Origin: an uncultured archaeon
GTDB taxonomy: Archaea > Asgardarchaeota > Lokiarchaeia > Sigyniarchaeales > SOKP01
DNA: 64,000 nt
Reading direction: 5' to 3'
Assembly: GCA_964508365.1 (NCBI GenBank)
Contig: CAZDTP010000004.1
Coordinates: forward strand, 33,681 to 97,680
A model generated the notes under the pieces. The model saw nothing but the letters and a program-made list of their open reading frames with translations, did not search any database and was not told the origin of the DNA. Below, one piece after another: positions 2,608 to 11,389 of this stretch (positions are counted from its first letter, which is position 1; each line of letters starts with the position of its first letter). A program made the translations under genes and the position numbers.

Positions 2608-4230
2608 TTATTTTGAATATTTTATAACATATAAGGGCCATTTTTTGAGAATTCCTTTAGGAATTTTACCAGTTCTTACTTTTTTTGTCATAACTGATCG
2701 ATCTTCAATGAAAGTTACAGGTTTTTCAGATATAAATTCCAACTTTATTGGTAGATTATCTTTGAATTTATCTCTGATACATTCTATAATTTCAGGATTA
2801 TCTAAGGATAGAGAATTATTAAAGAGGGGTAAATATAGCGTTTTTCCTTCTAAATTGCCCTTACTCATTAATAATAAGAGGGAGTCAATTAAATTATAAT
2901 ACACATCATTTATACATTCTAAAATTTCACGAGGTTTACGAAACTTAAAACCAGGAATGTTAAAATAATCTCCAACCAAAACCTCGTATTTTTGAGGGAG
3001 ATCAATTTTTTGAGAAATTATTATGGGATAATTTAATACAAAACTATCTCTTAAAATATTTCCATCAATGAGAGGAATTCCTTCTTGGGATTTGATATTA
3101 ATAACATCACCAGTATCAATATTAACTAATGGATTATTTTTCTCCATTCTAGTCATCAAAAGCCTTCCCATTTTTTCTTTAGAATATGATATTATTTCTT
3201 TATTTCCTTTTTTTTCTAAAACGGGCAATGAAAGAGGTAGAATATACATTTGGTTTAATCTTGAAATCTCAAAATTGCCCAAACTCGATGCTATTGCTCC
3301 TACTTCTGATGCTACATATAAGTTTGTGAACTTTTCAGACCCTTTCTTCCAGTTCATAAACTTTCTTATTAATATCCAATCTTTCTCTGAAAGTGAACTA
3401 ATACTGAATACAATAGTAGCATTTCTCAATTTTTCAGACAATTTCAATTGTATTATTTCTGCAGCATTCGTTAAACTATTGGTTTTTATTATTTTTAATA
3501 AACTTTCTAATTGAGGATCGTTAATATCATTGATTGATTTAACAGACCTATTAATCGCTGTCTTAAATTTATTGATGTCTGCCCACTTCAATATCGTTGT
3601 AGCAGGAGCAGACAAAACTGCGATATCTTCTAAATTTAAAATTTTAGAAATTACATCTATATTTGTAGCATTTTTATATTCGAAAAATGAATACGAATGT
3701 GGTTTAATCATTGATAACATAATTCTCTGTGAAAATTCAGATGAATACAAAGAGATGTATTTTTTCCCATTTACTTCTTTAAGTCCATCAAATTCTAATC
3801 TTGAGGGGACAAAAATAACCGCAGAATTGGTTTTTTTTAAGCCACTCGATTCGAATATAGCTTTCATACCAGGAGCCCAGTGTCTCTTTACATTTGAAAA
3901 AGTCATTTGATACCATTTTAATGCAGATAATCTACTATCTGTTGTTCCCGATGTGTGACATATTATGAAAGGCTCTCCATTTGGAGCTTGATTCAGTAAA
4001 GTCTCTAAACTGATGGAAAAACTGCTAGATTTAATTTTTTCACTTTTGATTTTTGCAAAAATGTCTTCCACATTATCAAGACCTGAGTTTTTCAAAACTT
4101 GATTCAAGTAGTCTTGTTTTGAATTAATGTTTAACCAATTACTCCATTTAATTGTATGGAGTTCAGAATATAATTCATTAATTATTTTCTGGATTTTTTT
4201 ATCGATATCGAATATAGGCATTTTCAACAA
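2608..4230 (-). CDS. GH3-like acyl-adenylate-forming enzyme (ANL superfamily)
   Basis: HTSGTT (P-loop-like), YVASEVG and IDTGDVI occur in the order and spacing of GH3 motifs I-III. Confidence 0.65.
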   Translation of the reverse strand: MLKMPIFDIDKKIQKIINELYSELHTIKWSNWLNINSKQDYLNQVLKNSGLDNVEDIFAKIKSEKIKSSSFSISLETLLNQAPNGEPFIICHTSGTTDSRLSALKWYQMTFSNVKRHWAPGMKAIFESSGLKKTNSAVIFVPSRLEFDGLKEVNGKKYISLYSSEFSQRIMLSMIKPHSYSFFEYKNATNIDVISKILNLEDIAVLSAPATTILKWADINKFKTAINRSVKSINDINDPQLESLLKIIKTNSLTNAAEIIQLKLSEKLRNATIVFSISSLSEKDWILIRKFMNWKKGSEKFTNLYVASEVGAIASSLGNFEISRLNQMYILPLSLPVLEKKGNKEIISYSKEKMGRLLMTRMEKNNPLVNIDTGDVINIKSQEGIPLIDGNILRDSFVLNYPIIISQKIDLPQKYEVLVGDYFNIPGFKFRKPREILECINDVYYNLIDSLLLLMSKGNLEGKTLYLPLFNNSLSLDNPEIIECIRDKFKDNLPIKLEFISEKPVTFIEDRSVMTKKVRTGKIPKGILKKWPLYVIKYSK

Positions 4231-4276: not shown

Positions 4277-4807
4277 TCATATTATTCCATACATTCCACT
4301 TTCAGAATCTAAGAAAATTGGGAGGTTTGGAGGAAAATATGTGAAAATTATAAATAATAAACCTAATGTTATGAATATTATCCAAGAAACATAACTAACC
4401 CATTTAGCCTTCTCTCCTAATGACATAACTTTAGCACTTACATATTGACCAATAAAAACTCCGATAATAAAACTTAGGATATCAATTATTAATAGTTCAA
4501 CTCCTAGAATAGCTGTGTAAGTATAAAAGGTTATTAATATTACACTTAAATCAATTGAAATGGCTAAGGTCTTTGCAAATATCAAATTATTTGAATCTAC
4601 TTTGATAAATTTAAGTTCTAATAAAGAGTAGATTATTAATGGCCAGTATGGTAACTTCAAGTGCTCCCATACGCTCTCATTTACCGGAAAGATACCACCT
4701 ATGGGAGGCCAACTCCCTAACCACTCAAACATAAAATGGAATAATGCTCCTACAATGCTAATAAAAATGGCACCAAAAATTTCCCACTTTAATAATTTTT
4801 TATTCAT
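4277..4807 (-). CDS. DUF6512-family membrane protein
   Basis: Four to five hydrophobic helices and the motif FPVNESVWEHLKL. Confidence 0.75.
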   Translation of the reverse strand: MNKKLLKWEIFGAIFISIVGALFHFMFEWLGSWPPIGGIFPVNESVWEHLKLPYWPLIIYSLLELKFIKVDSNNLIFAKTLAISIDLSVILITFYTYTAILGVELLIIDILSFIIGVFIGQYVSAKVMSLGEKAKWVSYVSWIIFITLGLLFIIFTYFPPNLPIFLDSESGMYGII

Positions 4808-4972: not shown

Positions 4973-5372
4973 TCATATTTCTATTTCAGTGTCACGAAAA
5001 TATTTAAGCTTCTTATAAAGGGATTTTTCTTTCTCAAAGCCCAATCGAAACTTGTCAATTCTTGGGCAATTAGTATCAAATCCACATCATTTTTTATCCA
5101 AATCATGGATTAAAGGATAATATATACATCCTTTTTGATGTAGTTCGTAGATTTTACATAGTTTGGTCTTTATATCTAAAAAATACAATGCCCTTCTACT
5201 TTAATGATTTGACAAAATCCCTCATTATTTAATTTAACAATTTTATCTTTCTTTAGATTTGTCTCAAAGTCCTTAATAATCAAGAATAGATCATTTTCAG
5301 ATAGAATAATTTCAGTTTCTAAGCAGATTTGCCAAAATCTTTACAAAGATTAATTTTTAAATGTTTTCCCAT
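4973..5372 (-). pseudogene. YkgJ-family cysteine-cluster protein pseudogene (paralog of 10991..11389)
   Basis: Hand translation: MGKHLKINLCKDFGK/CLETEIILSENDL...EGHCIF/LDIKTKLCKIYELHQKGCIYYPLIHDLDKK*CGFDTNCP...IEI*. It is colinear with the intact YkgJ gene but has two 1-nt frameshifts and an in-frame TGA at 5087-5089. Confidence 0.85.
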
Positions 5373-5481: not shown

Positions 5482-6393
5482 ATGACTGTTGAAGTTGAAG
5501 AATTAGATTCTGCTGACTCTAAAGAATCAAAAGAAGAAGTCACTAAAGAAAAAATTAAACTCCAATTTCATTGGTATTTGAGCATACTCTTTATAATTTA
5601 TTACTTATCTTATATCGTCTCTGGAGTCATTTTTCTGAGTTATATTATTTTTATATTTATTCCAAATGTCTTGTTAGTAGATAACCTCATTACGATATTC
5701 ACTAATCTTAAATCATTATTGGCTTTTTTAGCTTTACCTTTAGTTATTATGGTTAGTTATTTATCTCGCTTATTTATCACAGGATTGATAACTCGAATTT
5801 TCTGGAGATTAACTGAGAAAAGAAGCCCGACGAAAGATGGTATAATTCCACGAAATATCCCTTCCAAAACAGCTAATTATTACCATATAAGATCATTTAT
5901 GATAAAATATGGAAAAAACGCATTTATGAAAGGAGTGTTCCCGTGGCTGGCACCCTGGTTCTTTAATTATGTGGGAACTGGAATTATTAAAAGGGGCTCT
6001 ACATTAGAAGAATCCGTTGTTACAGATAAAAATATAAATGTCGGAAAAAATTGCTATGTTGGTTGCAATTCTGCATTATCCTCTCACTTTGTTGAAGGAA
6101 TATTTGGCAATATCGTCTATTTCGAAATCAAATTGGGAGAAAACACCACGCTCGGAGGATTTAACAATATTGCACCTGGATGTGAGCTAAGCGATAACTC
6201 ATACCTTTTACCAATGGCGGCTGCAACAAAACATAATACAACTAAAGGAGATAATTATTACTTTGGCATGCCCTTACGTCGTATTTTTAAGAAAAAGGTT
6301 ATGGATTACTTAAAAGTGAGTGAACAGGATTTATCTCGAGCTGAAGAATTAAGAATTAAACAAGAAAAAAAAAAATTAGAAAGACTAAATTGA
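5482..6393 (+). CDS. Membrane-anchored left-handed beta-helix (hexapeptide) acyltransferase-like protein, paralog A
   Basis: Two N-terminal TM helices followed by hexapeptide repeats (VGKNCYVGCNSALSSH, LGENTTLGGFNNIAPG) and a terminal YYFGMP. Confidence 0.8.
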   Translation: MTVEVEELDSADSKESKEEVTKEKIKLQFHWYLSILFIIYYLSYIVSGVIFLSYIIFIFIPNVLLVDNLITIFTNLKSLLAFLALPLVIMVSYLSRLFITGLITRIFWRLTEKRSPTKDGIIPRNIPSKTANYYHIRSFMIKYGKNAFMKGVFPWLAPWFFNYVGTGIIKRGSTLEESVVTDKNINVGKNCYVGCNSALSSHFVEGIFGNIVYFEIKLGENTTLGGFNNIAPGCELSDNSYLLPMAAATKHNTTKGDNYYFGMPLRRIFKKKVMDYLKVSEQDLSRAEELRIKQEKKKLERLN

Positions 6394-6440
6394 GCGATTT
6401 AGTAATATTTTAATTGAAATGGAGAGGAATTTATTAGATT

Positions 6441-7361
6441 TTGATTGAAGATACAAGTGATTCTGGACCTGAACTTCAACGGGAAATAGTTCAATTCCAG
6501 TATCAGAAATACATAGCCTTCTTCTTTTTTATTTATATAGGTTCTTATTTAGCGCCAGTCATAGCTCTAATGTTTTACCTTTTCTTAATTTTAAAACCCT
6601 TATTCTTAGAGGTAGACAGTTTTATTGTTATACTCACTAGTTTTGATTCTTTGATTATTTTTTTAACCCTCCCACTTGTAGTTGTTTTCTTCTATTTATC
6701 TCACCTATTTTTCTTAGGAATTTTTACACGAATTTCATGGAGATTTACAGAGAAGAGATCTCCGACTAAAGACGGGATAATTCCTCGTGATATTCTTTCA
6801 AAAACAGCAGATTACTACCACTACAGAAGTTTTATGATTAAATACGGCAAGAATGCTTTCATGAAAGGAATTTTCCCTTGGTTGGCAAATTGGTTTTTTA
6901 ACTTTGTTAAATCAAGCAAAATTGGAAGCGGATCCACCCTTGAAGAATCTGTAGGTAATGATAGACATATTGATGTTGGAAGAAATTGTTATATTGGAGT
7001 GAATTCCATATTAGCTTCTCATGTTGTTGAAGGTATTTTTGGTAACATCGTCTATTTTAAAGTAACAGTAAAAGATAATGCAACGCTCGGAGGTTTTAAT
7101 ACCATAGCTCCTGGGTGCGAGTTAAGCGAACATTCTTATTTATTGCCAATGGCTGCAGCAACAAAATTTAATACAACTAAGGGAAATAATTACTATTATG
7201 GTATCCCTTTTAGGCGGATCTTCAAAAAGAAGCTAATGGAATACATAAAAGTTAGTGAAGATGACTTGAATAGGGCAGAAGAACTAAGAATTAGGCAAGT
7301 AAACGCGAAACTCAACAGTTCAAATAAAGAAGAAATAAACAATAAAGAAAAACTAAATTAA
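6441..7361 (+). CDS. Membrane-anchored LbH acyltransferase-like protein, paralog B
   Basis: Closely similar to paralog A (TEKRSPTKDGIIPR, YHxRSFMIKYGKNAFMKG, SHxVEGIFGNIVYF). TTG start. Confidence 0.8.
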   Translation: MIEDTSDSGPELQREIVQFQYQKYIAFFFFIYIGSYLAPVIALMFYLFLILKPLFLEVDSFIVILTSFDSLIIFLTLPLVVVFFYLSHLFFLGIFTRISWRFTEKRSPTKDGIIPRDILSKTADYYHYRSFMIKYGKNAFMKGIFPWLANWFFNFVKSSKIGSGSTLEESVGNDRHIDVGRNCYIGVNSILASHVVEGIFGNIVYFKVTVKDNATLGGFNTIAPGCELSEHSYLLPMAAATKFNTTKGNNYYYGIPFRRIFKKKLMEYIKVSEDDLNRAEELRIRQVNAKLNSSNKEEINNKEKLN

Positions 7362-7379
7362 AGACATATGTGAAATAAA

Positions 7380-8300
7380 ATGACAGAAGAAGAAAAAGAT
7401 GAGCAAAAAGTTGTTAAGGAAGATGATGACACGGATGAGGACTCAGAATTTATTATAGACTTTACAACAAGCTCAGCAATAAATAGAGTAAGTTTGAAAT
7501 TTTTAGTTGTGTATATCCCAATATTCTGGTTTAGCGGTTTAGTAGTAGCTACCCTATGGTATAATTATACTATTAGTCCAGTACCTTGGGTTATCAAATT
7601 ATTGTTTTTACCTGTTTTATTGATAGCATTTTCGTTTCTTTTCATATTTAGCTGCTGCTTCTTCAGTAAATTATTGCTTATATTTATTAACCTTATTCAT
7701 GTCCCCAAAGAAGGAATATTTCGCACTGAAAAAGGTGATACTGACTTTGAATTTTGGAGATTAAGAACCGAGATTAAGAAGATAACTTTATGGCTAATAA
7801 GAAATTGGCCTCTACCCTGGATTGATGTGATAGCTTTTCGTTGGTTTGGAATTAAGATGGATTTTTCAAGCCATTTAAATGATTCATGGTGCGATGCTGA
7901 ATTTATTTCTTTTGGCAAAAACGTGACGATCGGCCAAGGCGCGGCGATTATGAGTTCAATGGTGGTAGGTAATTACCTCATCATTAAAAAGATTAGATTT
8001 GATGACTATTCACTTGTAGGAGGTCAGAGTACTATCGCCCCGGGAACGCATTTTGGGGAAGATACGGTGCTCGGTGCGGTGTCTGTAACAACCTTAAATC
8101 AAGAATTAGAAGACGGCTGGATCTATTCGGGTATACCAGCTAGAAAATTAAAACCCAACCAATACGCTGAAATGCGAAGAGATATTATTCATAAAGTAGA
8201 TGTCGATGGGAGAGAAAAAGTCGAAACTGAGCACGAAGTTAATATTGATGACGATAAAAAACATCTAATTAAACAAGATGATGGAGGTGTTAACGAGTGA
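7380..8300 (+). CDS. Membrane-anchored LbH acyltransferase-like protein, paralog C
   Basis: Two TM helices, PKEGIFR...FWRLR, then FGKNVTIGQGAAIMSS...GWIYSGIPA. Confidence 0.8.
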   Translation: MTEEEKDEQKVVKEDDDTDEDSEFIIDFTTSSAINRVSLKFLVVYIPIFWFSGLVVATLWYNYTISPVPWVIKLLFLPVLLIAFSFLFIFSCCFFSKLLLIFINLIHVPKEGIFRTEKGDTDFEFWRLRTEIKKITLWLIRNWPLPWIDVIAFRWFGIKMDFSSHLNDSWCDAEFISFGKNVTIGQGAAIMSSMVVGNYLIIKKIRFDDYSLVGGQSTIAPGTHFGEDTVLGAVSVTTLNQELEDGWIYSGIPARKLKPNQYAEMRRDIIHKVDVDGREKVETEHEVNIDDDKKHLIKQDDGGVNE

Positions 8301-9193
8301 GTACACCAAACTCAATGCGAGTCGGTCCTTTCTGTGCTAGCGTGTTAGTTAAAAAAAAGTACTTGATAGCATACATTTTTTTAATTTGGATAAGTCTGCT
8401 TCCCGCGATATTGGAAATTTGGTGGTACTGGCAGATGTTATGGTACGAGCCGCGACCAATTCACTTTTACATATTTCTACCCCTTTATTTATTCGTTATC
8501 TATGTTACAACTGTTCTTGTCGCCATCTTTTTCGCAAAAATTATATTAGTGATCGTTAACATTTTCCATAAACCTAGAGAGGGGGTGTTCCTTAGAGATC
8601 CTTCTGATAGGGATTACCGTTATTGGAGTCTTAGAAACACGATAAAAAAATGGCCAACTTGGCTCGCACATAAATTTCCATTTCCCTTCTTAGATAACAT
8701 ATGTTTTAAAATGTTTGGCGTAAAAACTAAATTTTCTAACTCCCTTTTTGAAGGTTGGGTAGATACTGAGTTTATAGAGTTCGGTTCTAATGTTGTTGTT
8801 GGTCAAGGTGCGATTATTCAATCTTCAGTAATTATAGGAAACTTTTTAATTATCAGAAAAACAGTTATCGAAGAAAACGTACGAGTTGGGGCACATGTAA
8901 TAATTATGCCTGGAACCCACATAGGAAAAAACTGTATTTTAAATACTTGGTCTTCTACAATGGTTGGACAGGAATTAGAAGAAGGGTGGATATACAATGG
9001 TGGTCCAGCAAAAAAGTTTAAGAAAAATAGGTTTTTTGAAGATATTCCAATTGAAAAACTTACTGAAACTATCGGAGACATGGACGGATTACTAAAGAAA
9101 TACGATGATCAATATGTTAAGAGAAAAATGAAAAAAAGGAAATTTCTTACTCGAAAAGATAAAGAGGAAAATGCCACGGAAGAAAAGGAATGA
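8297..9193 (+). CDS. Membrane-anchored LbH acyltransferase-like protein, paralog D
   Basis: GTG start overlaps the stop of C (GTGA), with GGAGG upstream. KPREGVFLR...YWSLR, FGSNVVVGQGAIIQSS, GWIYNGGPA. Confidence 0.8.
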   Translation: MSTPNSMRVGPFCASVLVKKKYLIAYIFLIWISLLPAILEIWWYWQMLWYEPRPIHFYIFLPLYLFVIYVTTVLVAIFFAKIILVIVNIFHKPREGVFLRDPSDRDYRYWSLRNTIKKWPTWLAHKFPFPFLDNICFKMFGVKTKFSNSLFEGWVDTEFIEFGSNVVVGQGAIIQSSVIIGNFLIIRKTVIEENVRVGAHVIIMPGTHIGKNCILNTWSSTMVGQELEEGWIYNGGPAKKFKKNRFFEDIPIEKLTETIGDMDGLLKKYDDQYVKRKMKKRKFLTRKDKEENATEEKE

Positions 9194-9984
9194 ACATGAA
9201 AATTGGATACGTACAAACTTCTCCAATTTTTGGGGACAAGGAGAAAAACTTTACACAAGTTAGGGACTTACTCGACAATGTTAAAGCGGATTTAATTGTA
9301 CTACCAGAGCTATTTGCTACAGGATACACTTTTGTATCAAAAAAAGAAGCAGAATCCTTAGCGGAACTTCCTGTTGGGAAAACTTCTGAATTTTTAATAG
9401 AACTTGCACATAAAACAAATGCAATTATTGTTGGAGGATTTATTGAAAAAGAAAATAGTCAGATATATAACTCTTCTCTAATTGTTTCGAGTAAGGGAGT
9501 TCTTGGCACTTATAGGAAACTCCATCTTTATTACAAAGAAAAACTATGGTTTTCACCTGGAAACCTGCCTTTAAAGGTTTATGAAATAAATAAAGTTAAA
9601 ATAGGAGTTATGATTTGTTTCGATTGGTTTTTTCCTGAGACGCCGCGCACTCTTGCTCTCCTAGGAGCAGATATTATAGCTCATCCCGCTAATTTAGTGC
9701 TTCCTTATTGCCAGAATGCTATGACAACCCATTGTTTAGTTAACCATGTATTTGCAATAACATCAAATAGAATAGGGCACGAAGCCAGAGGAACAGATAG
9801 TTTTACATTTACGGGAGGTAGTCAGATAACTTCGCAAAAGGGGAGTATAATATCTTCAGCGCCAACAGATCAAATTTTTGTAGATTTTACTGAAATCGAT
9901 GTAAATCAAGCTAGGGATAAGAGCATCAATATTTATAACAACCTTTTAAAAGATCGAAGACCAGAATTTTATCACATGAAATAA
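9190..9984 (+). CDS. Carbon-nitrogen hydrolase (nitrilase superfamily)
   Basis: E-K-C triad in LPELF, YRKLHL and ICFDWFFPE. ATGA overlap with paralog D. Confidence 0.9.
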   Translation: MNMKIGYVQTSPIFGDKEKNFTQVRDLLDNVKADLIVLPELFATGYTFVSKKEAESLAELPVGKTSEFLIELAHKTNAIIVGGFIEKENSQIYNSSLIVSSKGVLGTYRKLHLYYKEKLWFSPGNLPLKVYEINKVKIGVMICFDWFFPETPRTLALLGADIIAHPANLVLPYCQNAMTTHCLVNHVFAITSNRIGHEARGTDSFTFTGGSQITSQKGSIISSAPTDQIFVDFTEIDVNQARDKSINIYNNLLKDRRPEFYHMK

Positions 9985-9996
9985 ATTATTTTACTC

Positions 9997-11004
9997 ATGA
10001 AGGCAGCTATATTTGACGGGCGAGAGATTCAGATCAAGGAGATTCCTAAACCCGTCCTTAAAGATACTCAAGTTTTAATTCAAGTTAAAGCAGCAGGAAT
10101 TTGTGGAACAGATTTGGCCATAGCGAACGGTCATCTCCCTGTACCAATACCTCTAGTCTTAGGACACGAATTTTCGGGCATAGTTGTAGATATTGGTAAA
10201 AAAGTGAATCCCGACTGGTTGAAAAAACGAGTTACTTCTGAAATAAATAGCAATATTGATTTTAGTTGTTTTTTCTGTCAAAGGGATATTACATCCCAGT
10301 GCGAATCTCGGAAAGCATTGGGAATCGATATTAATGGAGCTTTTGCTGAGTTTATAGCTGTTGACTCTTATCTACTACACGAATTACCCGATAATATATC
10401 GTATAAAGAAGCTACATTTATCGAACCACTAGCGGCAGCATATCAAACTTTCGAAACAATGCCTTTAGGAAGCGATGATAAAACAATTGCAATTTTCGGA
10501 CTCGGAAAATTAGGATTATTACTCTGTCAAGTTGCTGTAATTAAAGGATTAGAGGTAATAGGAATGGATCACTCAGATAGAAAGCTTAATTTAGCTAAGA
10601 ATTTTGGGGTAAAGCATTTAATTAATAATAATGAAAATGAGAGTGTAGAAGGTAGGATAAAAAAAATAACAGGAAATCTTGGTGCCGATATCGTTGTTGA
10701 CACCACCGGTAATCCAAATGCTCTTAAAGAAATTGTTTCTTCCTGTAGAAGTAGAGGTAAAATCCATATTAAAAGTACTCATGGTTTAAAAACTCCAATT
10801 AATCTCACTGATATTGTAGTAAGAGAAATTACCATATATAGTAGTAGGTGTGGACCATTTCATAAAGCTATTGATGGACTAAGTTCGGGATTAATAAATG
10901 TTAAAGATCTAATTTCGAAAGAATTTAAATTAGAAAATATAGCTGATGCTTTTAATTCTTATAAAAAGAGTAGAGATCACATCAAGACCATCATTTTAAT
11001 TTAG
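9997..11004 (+). CDS. Zn-dependent medium-chain alcohol dehydrogenase (threonine-dehydrogenase-like)
   Basis: GICGTD, GHEFSG, CFFC...C structural Zn site, and GLGKLG nucleotide-binding motif. Confidence 0.9.
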   Translation: MKAAIFDGREIQIKEIPKPVLKDTQVLIQVKAAGICGTDLAIANGHLPVPIPLVLGHEFSGIVVDIGKKVNPDWLKKRVTSEINSNIDFSCFFCQRDITSQCESRKALGIDINGAFAEFIAVDSYLLHELPDNISYKEATFIEPLAAAYQTFETMPLGSDDKTIAIFGLGKLGLLLCQVAVIKGLEVIGMDHSDRKLNLAKNFGVKHLINNNENESVEGRIKKITGNLGADIVVDTTGNPNALKEIVSSCRSRGKIHIKSTHGLKTPINLTDIVVREITIYSSRCGPFHKAIDGLSSGLINVKDLISKEFKLENIADAFNSYKKSRDHIKTIILI

Positions 11005-11389
11005 CGAATAAAATTTGGCTTTCTAAAAAGTTTTTAATCTCCTCACATGTTTTTAGAGCGATCTCTTTATCTGGATATAATAATTTGGGTTTCGGACATT
11101 CTTCATCAAATATACATTGTTTTTTGTCCGAATCATAAATTAGTGGGTAAAAACGGCACCCTTGTGGTCTCACTTCGTAAATTGTACACAATTTAGCAGC
11201 ACTATCAAAGAACACACAGTAACCTTTAACATTTTTCAATAGATTAAATCCTTCCACGGTTTTTCGTACAAAATTGGCTATTTTTAAATGTTTAGGGTTA
11301 TTATTTTTAATAAGATCAATATCATTAGTAGATAAGAGCATCTCTGTTTCAATACAGCATTTTCCACAATCCTTACAGATATTTTTCAT
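10991..11389 (-). CDS. YkgJ-family cysteine-cluster (Zn/Fe-chelating) protein
   Basis: CKDCGKCC...CVFFD...CTIYEVRPQGCRFYP. Confidence 0.88.
   Translation of the reverse strand: MKNICKDCGKCCIETEMLLSTNDIDLIKNNNPKHLKIANFVRKTVEGFNLLKNVKGYCVFFDSAAKLCTIYEVRPQGCRFYPLIYDSDKKQCIFDEECPKPKLLYPDKEIALKTCEEIKNFLESQILFAKLK

Follow-up and report, generated by a model that had tools for sequence, protein, structure and literature searches.

Tandem membrane-anchored beta-helix genes in an Asgard archaeon and their likeness to the polymerisation domain of poly-lysine synthetases

The closest described systems to the genes reported here are the terminal domains of the non-ribosomal peptide synthetases (NRPSs) of the Pls (synthetase of epsilon-poly-L-lysine) and PosA family, for which a predicted model but no experimental structure has been published (PMC10522769). 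In that model, three transmembrane (TM) pairs make up a single six-TM bundle that is roughly threefold symmetric, each TM pair is connected to its beta-helix by two helices and a strand, and three five-turn left-handed beta-helices (LbHs) sit on the bundle, packed like the trimers of sugar-nucleotide acyltransferases (PMC10522769). A second point of reference is the galactoside acetyltransferase LacA of Escherichia coli, in which His115 is the general base, the H115A exchange costs about 90% of the activity, and N147-P148-G149 adjoins acetyl-coenzyme A (acetyl-CoA) (PMC12775004). We analysed a 64,000-nucleotide stretch of an uncultured archaeon of the Sigyniarchaeales (contig CAZDTP010000004.1, positions 33,681 to 97,680; hereafter the window), in which four consecutive genes, here called A, B, C, and D, each encode a TM hairpin followed by an LbH. 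We lean, if only slightly, towards the reading that these genes encode a split, carrier-less LbH heterotrimer of Pls architecture, with a single type of His-bearing subunit, facing the cytoplasm and served by a soluble thioester donor. In our literature searches, neither a report of such a system from Asgard archaea nor a solved structure of the Pls terminal domain came up.

Three module types in a fixed order

The four genes are tandem paralogs on one strand that encode proteins of 298-306 aa, each with two extended hydrophobic segments among its first ~100 residues, a K/R-rich segment after these, and finally hexapeptide repeats ending in G-x-P; a first-pass annotation made from the window alone had described this anatomy and the overlaps of start and stop codons from C onward (GTGA between C and D, ATGA between D and the next gene), and both descriptions were confirmed. 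In the family alignments, the 40 residues after TM2 contain 7-9 K+R, compared with 0.5-1.1 in the TM1-TM2 loop. Because of this K/R richness after TM2, the positive-inside rule would place the LbHs of A-D in the cytoplasm. Pairwise identity was 62% between A and B and 39% between C and D, and ~20% when A or B was compared with C or D. All four proteins could be aligned to LbH proteins by profile; against the Pfam Hexapep model (PF00132, cut-off 27 bits), D scored 40.2 bits, and A, B, and C remained below the cut-off at 21.9, 22.4, and 17.9 bits.

We typed every module in 78 related Asgard loci, and describe their arrangements with '=' for modules in the same open reading frame (ORF) and '|' for separate genes. 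The arrangement A=C|D was found in 38 units, A=C alone in 24, A|C|D in 23, A|A|A|C|D in six, A|A|C|D in four, and D|A=C in four. The unit that is conserved is thus a triplet, built from three ancient types that follow each other cyclically as A-C-D. The C-type module is fused to A in most relatives (e.g., P0133), and most loci hold a single A-type module, with A|A|C|D or A|A|A|C|D occurring in close relatives. The A/B pair of the window is a recent and lineage-specific duplication of the A type that is limited to these close relatives. The first-pass annotation had sorted the four genes into two sub-family pairs, A/B and C/D; the division into His-bearing and His-lacking modules stood, whereas the pairs themselves gave way to three types and a recent duplication.

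Among database proteins, A=C fusions of 623 aa, D=A fusions of 527-598 aa, and D=A=C fusions of 797 and 805 aa were observed. Because different types were fused repeatedly and in a fixed order, it is very probable that the A, C, and D modules function together in a single assembly, and the split, hetero-oligomeric complex suggested by the first-pass annotation is in keeping with both the order and the fusions. Moreover, each fusion adds an even number of TM segments, which would leave all beta-helices on the same side of the membrane. The D type is the best conserved of the three (60-90% identity), and its more than 700 homologues are essentially all from Asgard metagenome-assembled genomes.

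The histidine column and the relation to Pls and PosA

One His residue separates the module types. His202 (numbering of gene A in the window) was present in all 131 A-type modules and in none of the 115 C-type or 95 D-type modules, which carry Ser, Ala, or Met in this column. The presence of the His in A and B (SSHFVEG, ASHVVEG) and its lack in C and D (MSSMVVG, QSSVIIG), first noticed in the window, therefore holds family-wide (131/131 vs. 0/210). Two acidic residues, E176 and E177, are invariant together with His202 in the same 131 modules. When the A-type profile was aligned with solved structures, His202 fell exactly on His115 of LacA (1kqa), and the A-type 'i-g-p-G' turn was aligned with N147-P148-G149.

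For comparison with the synthetases, we drew eight authentic Pls/PosA proteins from a plasmid collection. In these eight proteins, a His at the same column was kept only in module 3, within the motif Q-T-H-L-x-E-D, and the A-type motif S-H-x-x-E/D/Q could be aligned with it His to His and, as S-H-x-x-E, acid to acid. In bacterial three-module proteins (described below), the His was found in the second module only, that is, at the position that A occupies in the D=A=C fusions. The Asgard set, Pls/PosA, and the bacterial three-module proteins therefore have a rule in common, by which a single module in every three bears the His, and this rule supports the assignment of A and B as catalytic and of C and D as non-catalytic subunits. 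Such a split had been suggested at first reading, and the alignment of His202 with LacA His115 and with the His-bearing module of Pls argues for it. The His motif is the sole pointer of A to module 3 of Pls. A one-to-one assignment of A, C, and D to the Pls modules by hhalign score was rejected, with all three types scoring best against module 1.

Further invariant residues were D168, W170, and D172 in the C type, and H125, E152, D156, and E158 in the D type, in which H200 was also mostly kept. An acidic cluster lies just before the first coil in each type (E176, E177, and D182 in A; D168, D172, and E174 in C; E152, D156, and E158 in D), and these nine residues, acidic and conserved at equivalent places in the three types, may mark a site for a cationic acceptor or a metal.

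At the level of families, the best NCBIfam match of both window C (9.4e-10, 37.5 bits; residues 110-260 on model positions 69-216) and window D (5.7e-11, 41.5 bits) was TIGR02353, the Pls/PosA family NRPS terminal domain, whose curated cut-off is 423.1 bits. The C alignment starts at residue 110, ~65 residues ahead of the first coil. Window A had no match to this model, window B matched it at an E-value of only 0.1, and P0124, a natural three-module fusion, scored 54 bits. Across the relatives, TIGR02353 ranked first among the NCBIfam families for 39/39 C-type and 25/25 D-type modules, and was matched by 15 of 41 A-type modules. Profile comparison with the pooled Pls modules (hhalign) gave probabilities of 98.9% for the D type (E 1.4e-17), 98.0% for the C type, and 97.1% for the A type, and some of these alignments begin in the TM region (C residues 40-264 on residues 3-223 of module 3). 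After TM2, the Asgard and Pls modules share co-linear motifs: P-x-x-G-aromatic, aromatic-R-x-W, an 'LGAxIG'-like entry, the coils, and G-x-PA. In a tblastn search of the plasmids with D, the best match was an annotated epsilon-poly-L-lysine synthase (2e-5).

The bacterial three-module proteins were among the 4354 proteins found by an exhaustive HMMER search with a C+D profile (E<=1e-3). They are 650-690 aa long and lack adenylation and thiolation domains, and some are from Elusimicrobiota (e.g., MBK8576353.1, P0279). The E-values of these proteins were 1e-19 to 1e-38 with the Asgard profile, and 1e-46 to 1e-54 (157-184 bits) with TIGR02353; their alignments with the Asgard C and D profiles extended from TM2 through the LbH. 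When one of them was used as a tblastn query against 72,556 plasmids, 26 records were matched, and all annotated ones among these were Pls/PosA-family or adenylation-domain synthetases, including an annotated pls and the A. baumannii PosA. The bacterial three-module proteins thus appear to link the Asgard modules with Pls/PosA. For the part ahead of the LbH, the D type matched the bacterial proteins at P 2.5e-4 and these matched Pls at P 6e-5, which is suggestive only. Taken together, the likeness to Pls seems firm for the architecture and the beta-helix profile, and is unproven for the membrane part. Matches in the ESM Atlas were confined to the family's own unannotated clusters and to bacterial single-module Hexapep proteins.

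Some further synthetase-like genes were encountered in these searches. A metagenomic protein of 960 aa (P0240) carries an N-terminal short-chain dehydrogenase fused to three modules (six TM segments and three LbHs), which echoes the dehydrogenase gene next to the Asgard modules. In the Pseudonocardia plasmid pBCI1-2 (L084:1426-5399), a 796-aa gene of the Pls/PosA family has a separate 428-aa AMP-binding gene ahead of it, which is either a natural split of the adenylation domain or a frameshifted synthetase. On a Streptomyces plasmid (L079:5013-6425), an M1 metallopeptidase gene overlaps the pls stop codon, in parallel with the hydrolase gene that overlaps the D stop codon in the window; the Streptomyces order is the known pls-pld arrangement.

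Neighbouring genes and distribution

The features of the locus, which is AT-rich (26-37% G+C in the window), are listed in table 1. The gaps are 47 nt between A and B and 18 nt between B and C, and the Zn-dehydrogenase gene starts 12 nt after the hydrolase gene. Given this spacing and the overlaps described above, A, B, C, D, the hydrolase gene, and the dehydrogenase gene likely form a six-gene operon.

Table 1. Features of the A-D locus (positions in the window)
Feature	Position	Strand	Evidence
X540, divergent ANL-superfamily (PaaK/GH3-like) adenylate-forming enzyme (predicted)	2608..4230	-	AF2 model + Foldseek
DUF6512 membrane protein, travels with X540	4277..4807	-	PF20122 5.2e-33
Decayed CxxCxxCC pseudogene, divergent from gene A	5060..5331	-	tblastn of intact copy vs. 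gap 4808-5481
Gene A (His-bearing A-type module with two TM segments, a linker, and an LbH; putative catalytic subunit)	5482..6393	+	ORF, 303 aa
Gene B (second A-type module, duplicate of A)	6441..7361	+	ORF, 306 aa
Gene C (C-type module, lacking the His of the catalytic column)	7380..8300	+	ORF, 306 aa
Gene D (D-type module, no His at the catalytic column)	8297..9193	+	ORF, 298 aa
C-N hydrolase (nitrilase superfamily)	9190..9984	+	PF00795 4.3e-40
Zn-dependent medium-chain dehydrogenase	9997..11004	+	ADH_N, ADH_zinc_N
CxxCxxCC (YkgJ-type) small Cys-rich protein	10991..11389	-	PF03692 9.9e-14

The most tightly linked neighbours are the CxxCxxCC gene and the Zn-dehydrogenase gene. The former lies divergently upstream of 39 of the ~66 D-containing units and downstream of 23 of the 25 A=C-only units, and the latter lies directly upstream of 22 of these 25 units in relatives (19 A=C and three A=C|A=C). 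An intact divergent CxxCxxCC gene occupies in relatives the position of the pseudogene, which in the window lies between the DUF6512 gene and A and consists of two pieces in different frames with one in-frame TAA (summed E 7e-17). The C-N hydrolase gene follows D in 17 of 91 units; its NCBIfam matches were an archaeal nitrilase model (289 bits, cut-off 500) and N-carbamoylputrescine amidase (1.4e-42).

X540 gave no relevant match to Pfam (E<=10), NCBIfam, or the sequences of the Protein Data Bank (PDB), also when a profile was used against the latter, and this includes the AMP-binding and GH3 models. Its AF2 model (pLDDT 78.9, pTM 0.79) was matched by Foldseek, with probability 1.0 and E-values from 4e-11 to 1e-8, to the acyl-CoA ligase BT_0428 (4e-11), PaaK1, JAR1/GH3.11, GH3.15, and HCL, and also to NatL2. 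The motifs that are invariant in X540 (TSGTT, YxxSE-x-G, D-x-GD, and G-K) follow the same order as the ANL core motifs. X540 is therefore modelled as a two-domain ANL fold of the PaaK/GH3 branch. The gene is single-copy and usually near the modules where present, and DUF6512 genes adjoin it in most loci that hold them. It was found in 25 of the 40 sampled genomes of the window's GTDB family, and was missing from the other 15, several of which are 98-100% complete, and from the sister family. Three genomes of another family (G197, G214, and G238; f19) hold full-length X540 homologues (E ~1e-197) and no D-type module at E<=1e-40. This phyletic pattern rules out X540 as an obligatory partner or dedicated activating enzyme, and leaves it as an accessory enzyme. 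An aminoacyl-tRNA-dependent mechanism, to which a nearby AlaX gene had pointed, was also dropped, because LbH enzymes are not known to take tRNA donors and because AlaX is only a convergent neighbour, in 11 units.

Neither a PP-binding domain (PF00550) nor a phosphopantetheinyl transferase (PPTase; PF01648) was matched in the genome of the window, which is 100% complete by marker genes, and Pfam and NCBIfam searches detected no AMP-binding or PP-binding domain on A-D. The absence of carrier protein and PPTase, together with the occurrence of the neighbouring ANL enzyme in just 25 of the 40 family genomes, excludes a thiotemplate mechanism of the true Pls kind.

All 40 sampled genomes of the GTDB family of the window and all three of the sister family in the same order (43/43) contained D-type modules (E<=1e-40), usually in several loci per genome; the other families sampled from the phylum, with 157 genomes, contained none. 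The system is thus universal in one Asgard order and is not Asgard-wide; conservation of the array, proposed as a check across Asgard genomes, was seen within this one order only. No full TIGR02353 match (E<=1e-30) was found among 150 genomes sampled from the GTDB phylum of the close relative carrying locus L076. That record (DATKTW010000040.1) is titled 'Candidatus Nanopelagicaceae bacterium' and holds the complete A-B-B-C-D-NIT-ADH locus at 95% identity; the Asgard genome to which it belongs (G001) has the same three TIGR02353-like loci as that of the window, and the record looks mislabelled or misbinned. Records of the JBHL... series titled Hodarchaeota, Hermodarchaeota, Thorarchaeota, or Odinarchaeota (L019, L026, L035, L036, L049, L063, and others) carry D-type genes 64-70% identical to that of the window; these NCBI phylum labels may mismatch their placement, and the GTDB-based sample confines the gene to one order. 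In the genome of the window, contig 55 (L087:6091-7704, minus strand) bears a second, more divergent pair, C' (289 aa, 30% identity to C) and D' (246 aa, 37% identity to D), which has no A-type gene with it. Two 460-aa multi-TM ORFs lie ahead of this pair, and after it comes an ORF of 531 aa with an N-terminus that looks metallophosphoesterase-like by eye.

Proposed assembly, alternatives, and known systems

We proposed that A-D are subunits of one membrane-embedded LbH acyltransferase, built like the Pls/PosA polymerisation domain but split and working without an NRPS carrier. Modules of the A, C, and D types, each a TM hairpin with a linker and an LbH of five or so turns, would form a pseudo-threefold heterotrimer on a six-helix membrane bundle, and such a split A-C-D set would reproduce the plan of the PosA model. 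The A type alone would supply the general-base His at the position of LacA His115, with genes A and B possibly providing alternative subunits, and the C and D types, which lack this His, would contribute neighbouring beta-helices and thereby complete the membrane bundle, the cleft for the thioester donor, and an active site between subunits. Most likely, the donor would be a soluble thioester of acyl- or aminoacyl-CoA type, for which X540 is a possible source in some genomes. The acceptor group would probably be an amine or a hydroxyl, on a molecule that is cationic or associated with the membrane, a class that we proposed because of the nine invariant acidic residues that precede the first LbH coil in the three types. 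The structure of the genes, the module types and their fusions, the conservation and the residue pattern, the bias in topology, and the absence of carrier and PPTase were observed directly; the heterotrimer, its single active site, the CoA donor, and the acceptor class are what we infer.

Several observations weigh against this proposal. The Pls similarity lies mostly in the generic LbH. All TIGR02353 scores of the Asgard modules are ~tenfold under the curated cut-off, the margin of the D type over WcaF-type models is modest (1.8e-12 vs. 6.4e-10), the best family of the A type is an ordinary O-acetyltransferase model, and the plasmid BLAST matches of C are generic LbH proteins of gamma-carbonic-anhydrase (gamma-CA) or WcaF-like kind. 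In hhalign comparisons of the TM and linker part alone with Pls, P was 0.01-0.2, near the reversed-sequence controls and not significant. Thus, the resemblance to Pls C-terminal modules claimed in the first-pass annotation stands for the family ranking of the C and D types and for the profile comparison of full modules (97.1-98.9%), but not for the membrane and linker part, the bit scores (37-42 vs. 423), or the BLAST matches of C. The heterotrimer itself is drawn from gene order and fusions; AlphaFold2 of the natural D=A=C fusion P0121, run as a single sequence without an alignment, reached a pLDDT of 40, and the 24 A=C units without a D of their own indicate that the stoichiometry is not simply 1:1:1. 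Since D keeps other His residues (H125 and, mostly, H200), it may be no mere scaffold. The donor and the acceptor are guesses.

In one alternative, the modules would be ordinary, independent membrane-anchored O-acetyltransferases of the MAT/GAT/WcaF kind, each forming its own homotrimers and transferring acetyl groups from acetyl-CoA onto surface glycans or lipid-linked sugars, with the array a result of paralogy. In its favour, generic LbH acetyltransferase models come near TIGR02353 for D and do better for A, C matches WcaF/gamma-CA-like proteins on plasmids, the region before the LbH is not significantly Pls-like, the A type retains the LacA-type catalytic His and the following loop, and contig 8 of the same genome holds a single-module LbH gene among glycosyltransferase genes. 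We nevertheless consider this explanation unlikely: the catalytic His is missing from all 210 C and D modules, which are yet the best-conserved types, the fixed A-C-D order and the repeated A=C, D=A, and D=A=C fusions are unexpected for independent homotrimers, and a fused A=C chain is incompatible with a simple homotrimeric LbH of a single type. Alternatively, C and D could be LbH pseudo-enzymes with a structural or transport role at the membrane, comparable to the gamma-CA-like subunits of mitochondrial complex I, and A and B could act apart from them. The best sequence relatives of D in the PDB do include such complex I subunits, both types lack the catalytic His, and D is unusually conserved. 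However, the A=C and D=A fusions bind C and D physically to a His-bearing module, and the CoA-loop-like P-G turn and the acidic clusters are kept in all three types, and we regard this alternative as very improbable.

At the other extreme, the locus might encode a genuine split homopoly(amino acid) synthase, in which X540 adenylates a basic amino acid, A-C-D polymerises it, the cationic isopeptide polymer exits through the TM bundle, and the C-N hydrolase trims or degrades the product as Pld does. This would suit the Pls-like architecture and the one-His rule common with Pls, the ANL/GH3-type fold of X540 and its usual location within a few kilobases where present, the amidase gene translationally coupled to D (compare the peptidase gene right after Streptomyces pls), and the invariant acidic clusters before the first coil of A, C, and D, given that modules 2 and 3 of Pls also have acidic residues there. 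It is improbable, however: the genome has no thiolation domain or PPTase, X540 is missing from 15 of 40 module-bearing family genomes and from the sister family and occurs elsewhere without D-type matches, the hydrolase gene seldom follows D, none of the 150 sampled genomes has a full TIGR02353 match, and no polymer has been reported. A broader version of our proposal, in which one Asgard order universally possesses a carrier-independent, modular polymerase of Pls type, is speculative and rather unlikely; here the heterotrimer with its single His site would ligate CoA- or AMP-activated amino or acyl acids onto a cationic amine, the resulting polyamide or acyl-polyamine would become a part of the cell envelope, and A/B or additional A=C copies could be swapped to alter specificity.

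If the split acyltransferase assembly that we favour is real, it bears on the Pls/PosA polymerisation domain, for which there are no agreed catalytic residues. A split version with a candidate His in one subunit type would allow the modules to be expressed, mutated, and exchanged separately, which would help to show how a membrane amide- or ester-forming machine of the Pls type works. Because the multi-copy set occurs in 43/43 genomes of the order and in 0/157 elsewhere, it probably makes an undescribed, lineage-defining component of the envelope or membrane. The stand-alone bacterial three-module proteins and the split or fused archaeal forms also suggest that the Pls-type architecture is not bound to NRPS adenylation and thiolation domains.

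Compared with known systems, the Asgard modules share with Pls/PosA the repeat unit of TM hairpin, helical linker, and LbH, the occurrence of three non-identical units together, and the [ST]-H-x-x-[ED] motif in exactly one unit. They differ in that the three units are in tandem in one chain in Pls/PosA but on four separate genes in the window, with two- and three-unit fusions in relatives, and in having no adenylation or thiolation domain, in a genome without carrier or PPTase and in an archaeal host. The bacterial three-module proteins have the same module of two TM segments and an LbH three times over, likewise without these domains and with one His-bearing module, but are always single polypeptides and are nearer to TIGR02353 than the Asgard modules. 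For X540, the predicted fold is like those of the PaaK/GH3-branch ANL enzymes BT_0428, PaaK1, JAR1/GH3.11, 2-hydroxyisobutyryl-CoA ligase, and NatL2, from which it differs in lacking a sequence-level family match. With the MAT/GAT/WcaF O-acetyltransferases (E. coli LacA, Maa, and WcaF; the Bacillus subtilis heptaprenylglyceryl-phosphate O-acetyltransferase), the modules have in common the LbH signature, the His115-aligned His of the A type followed by a loop, the aligned N-P-G CoA-loop region, and an 'LGAxIG'-like helix-to-coil entry motif. Those enzymes, however, are soluble or peripheral homotrimers with three identical active sites. In the Asgard set, every module has its own TM hairpin, only one of the three types carries the His, and the types occur as fusions or in a set order.

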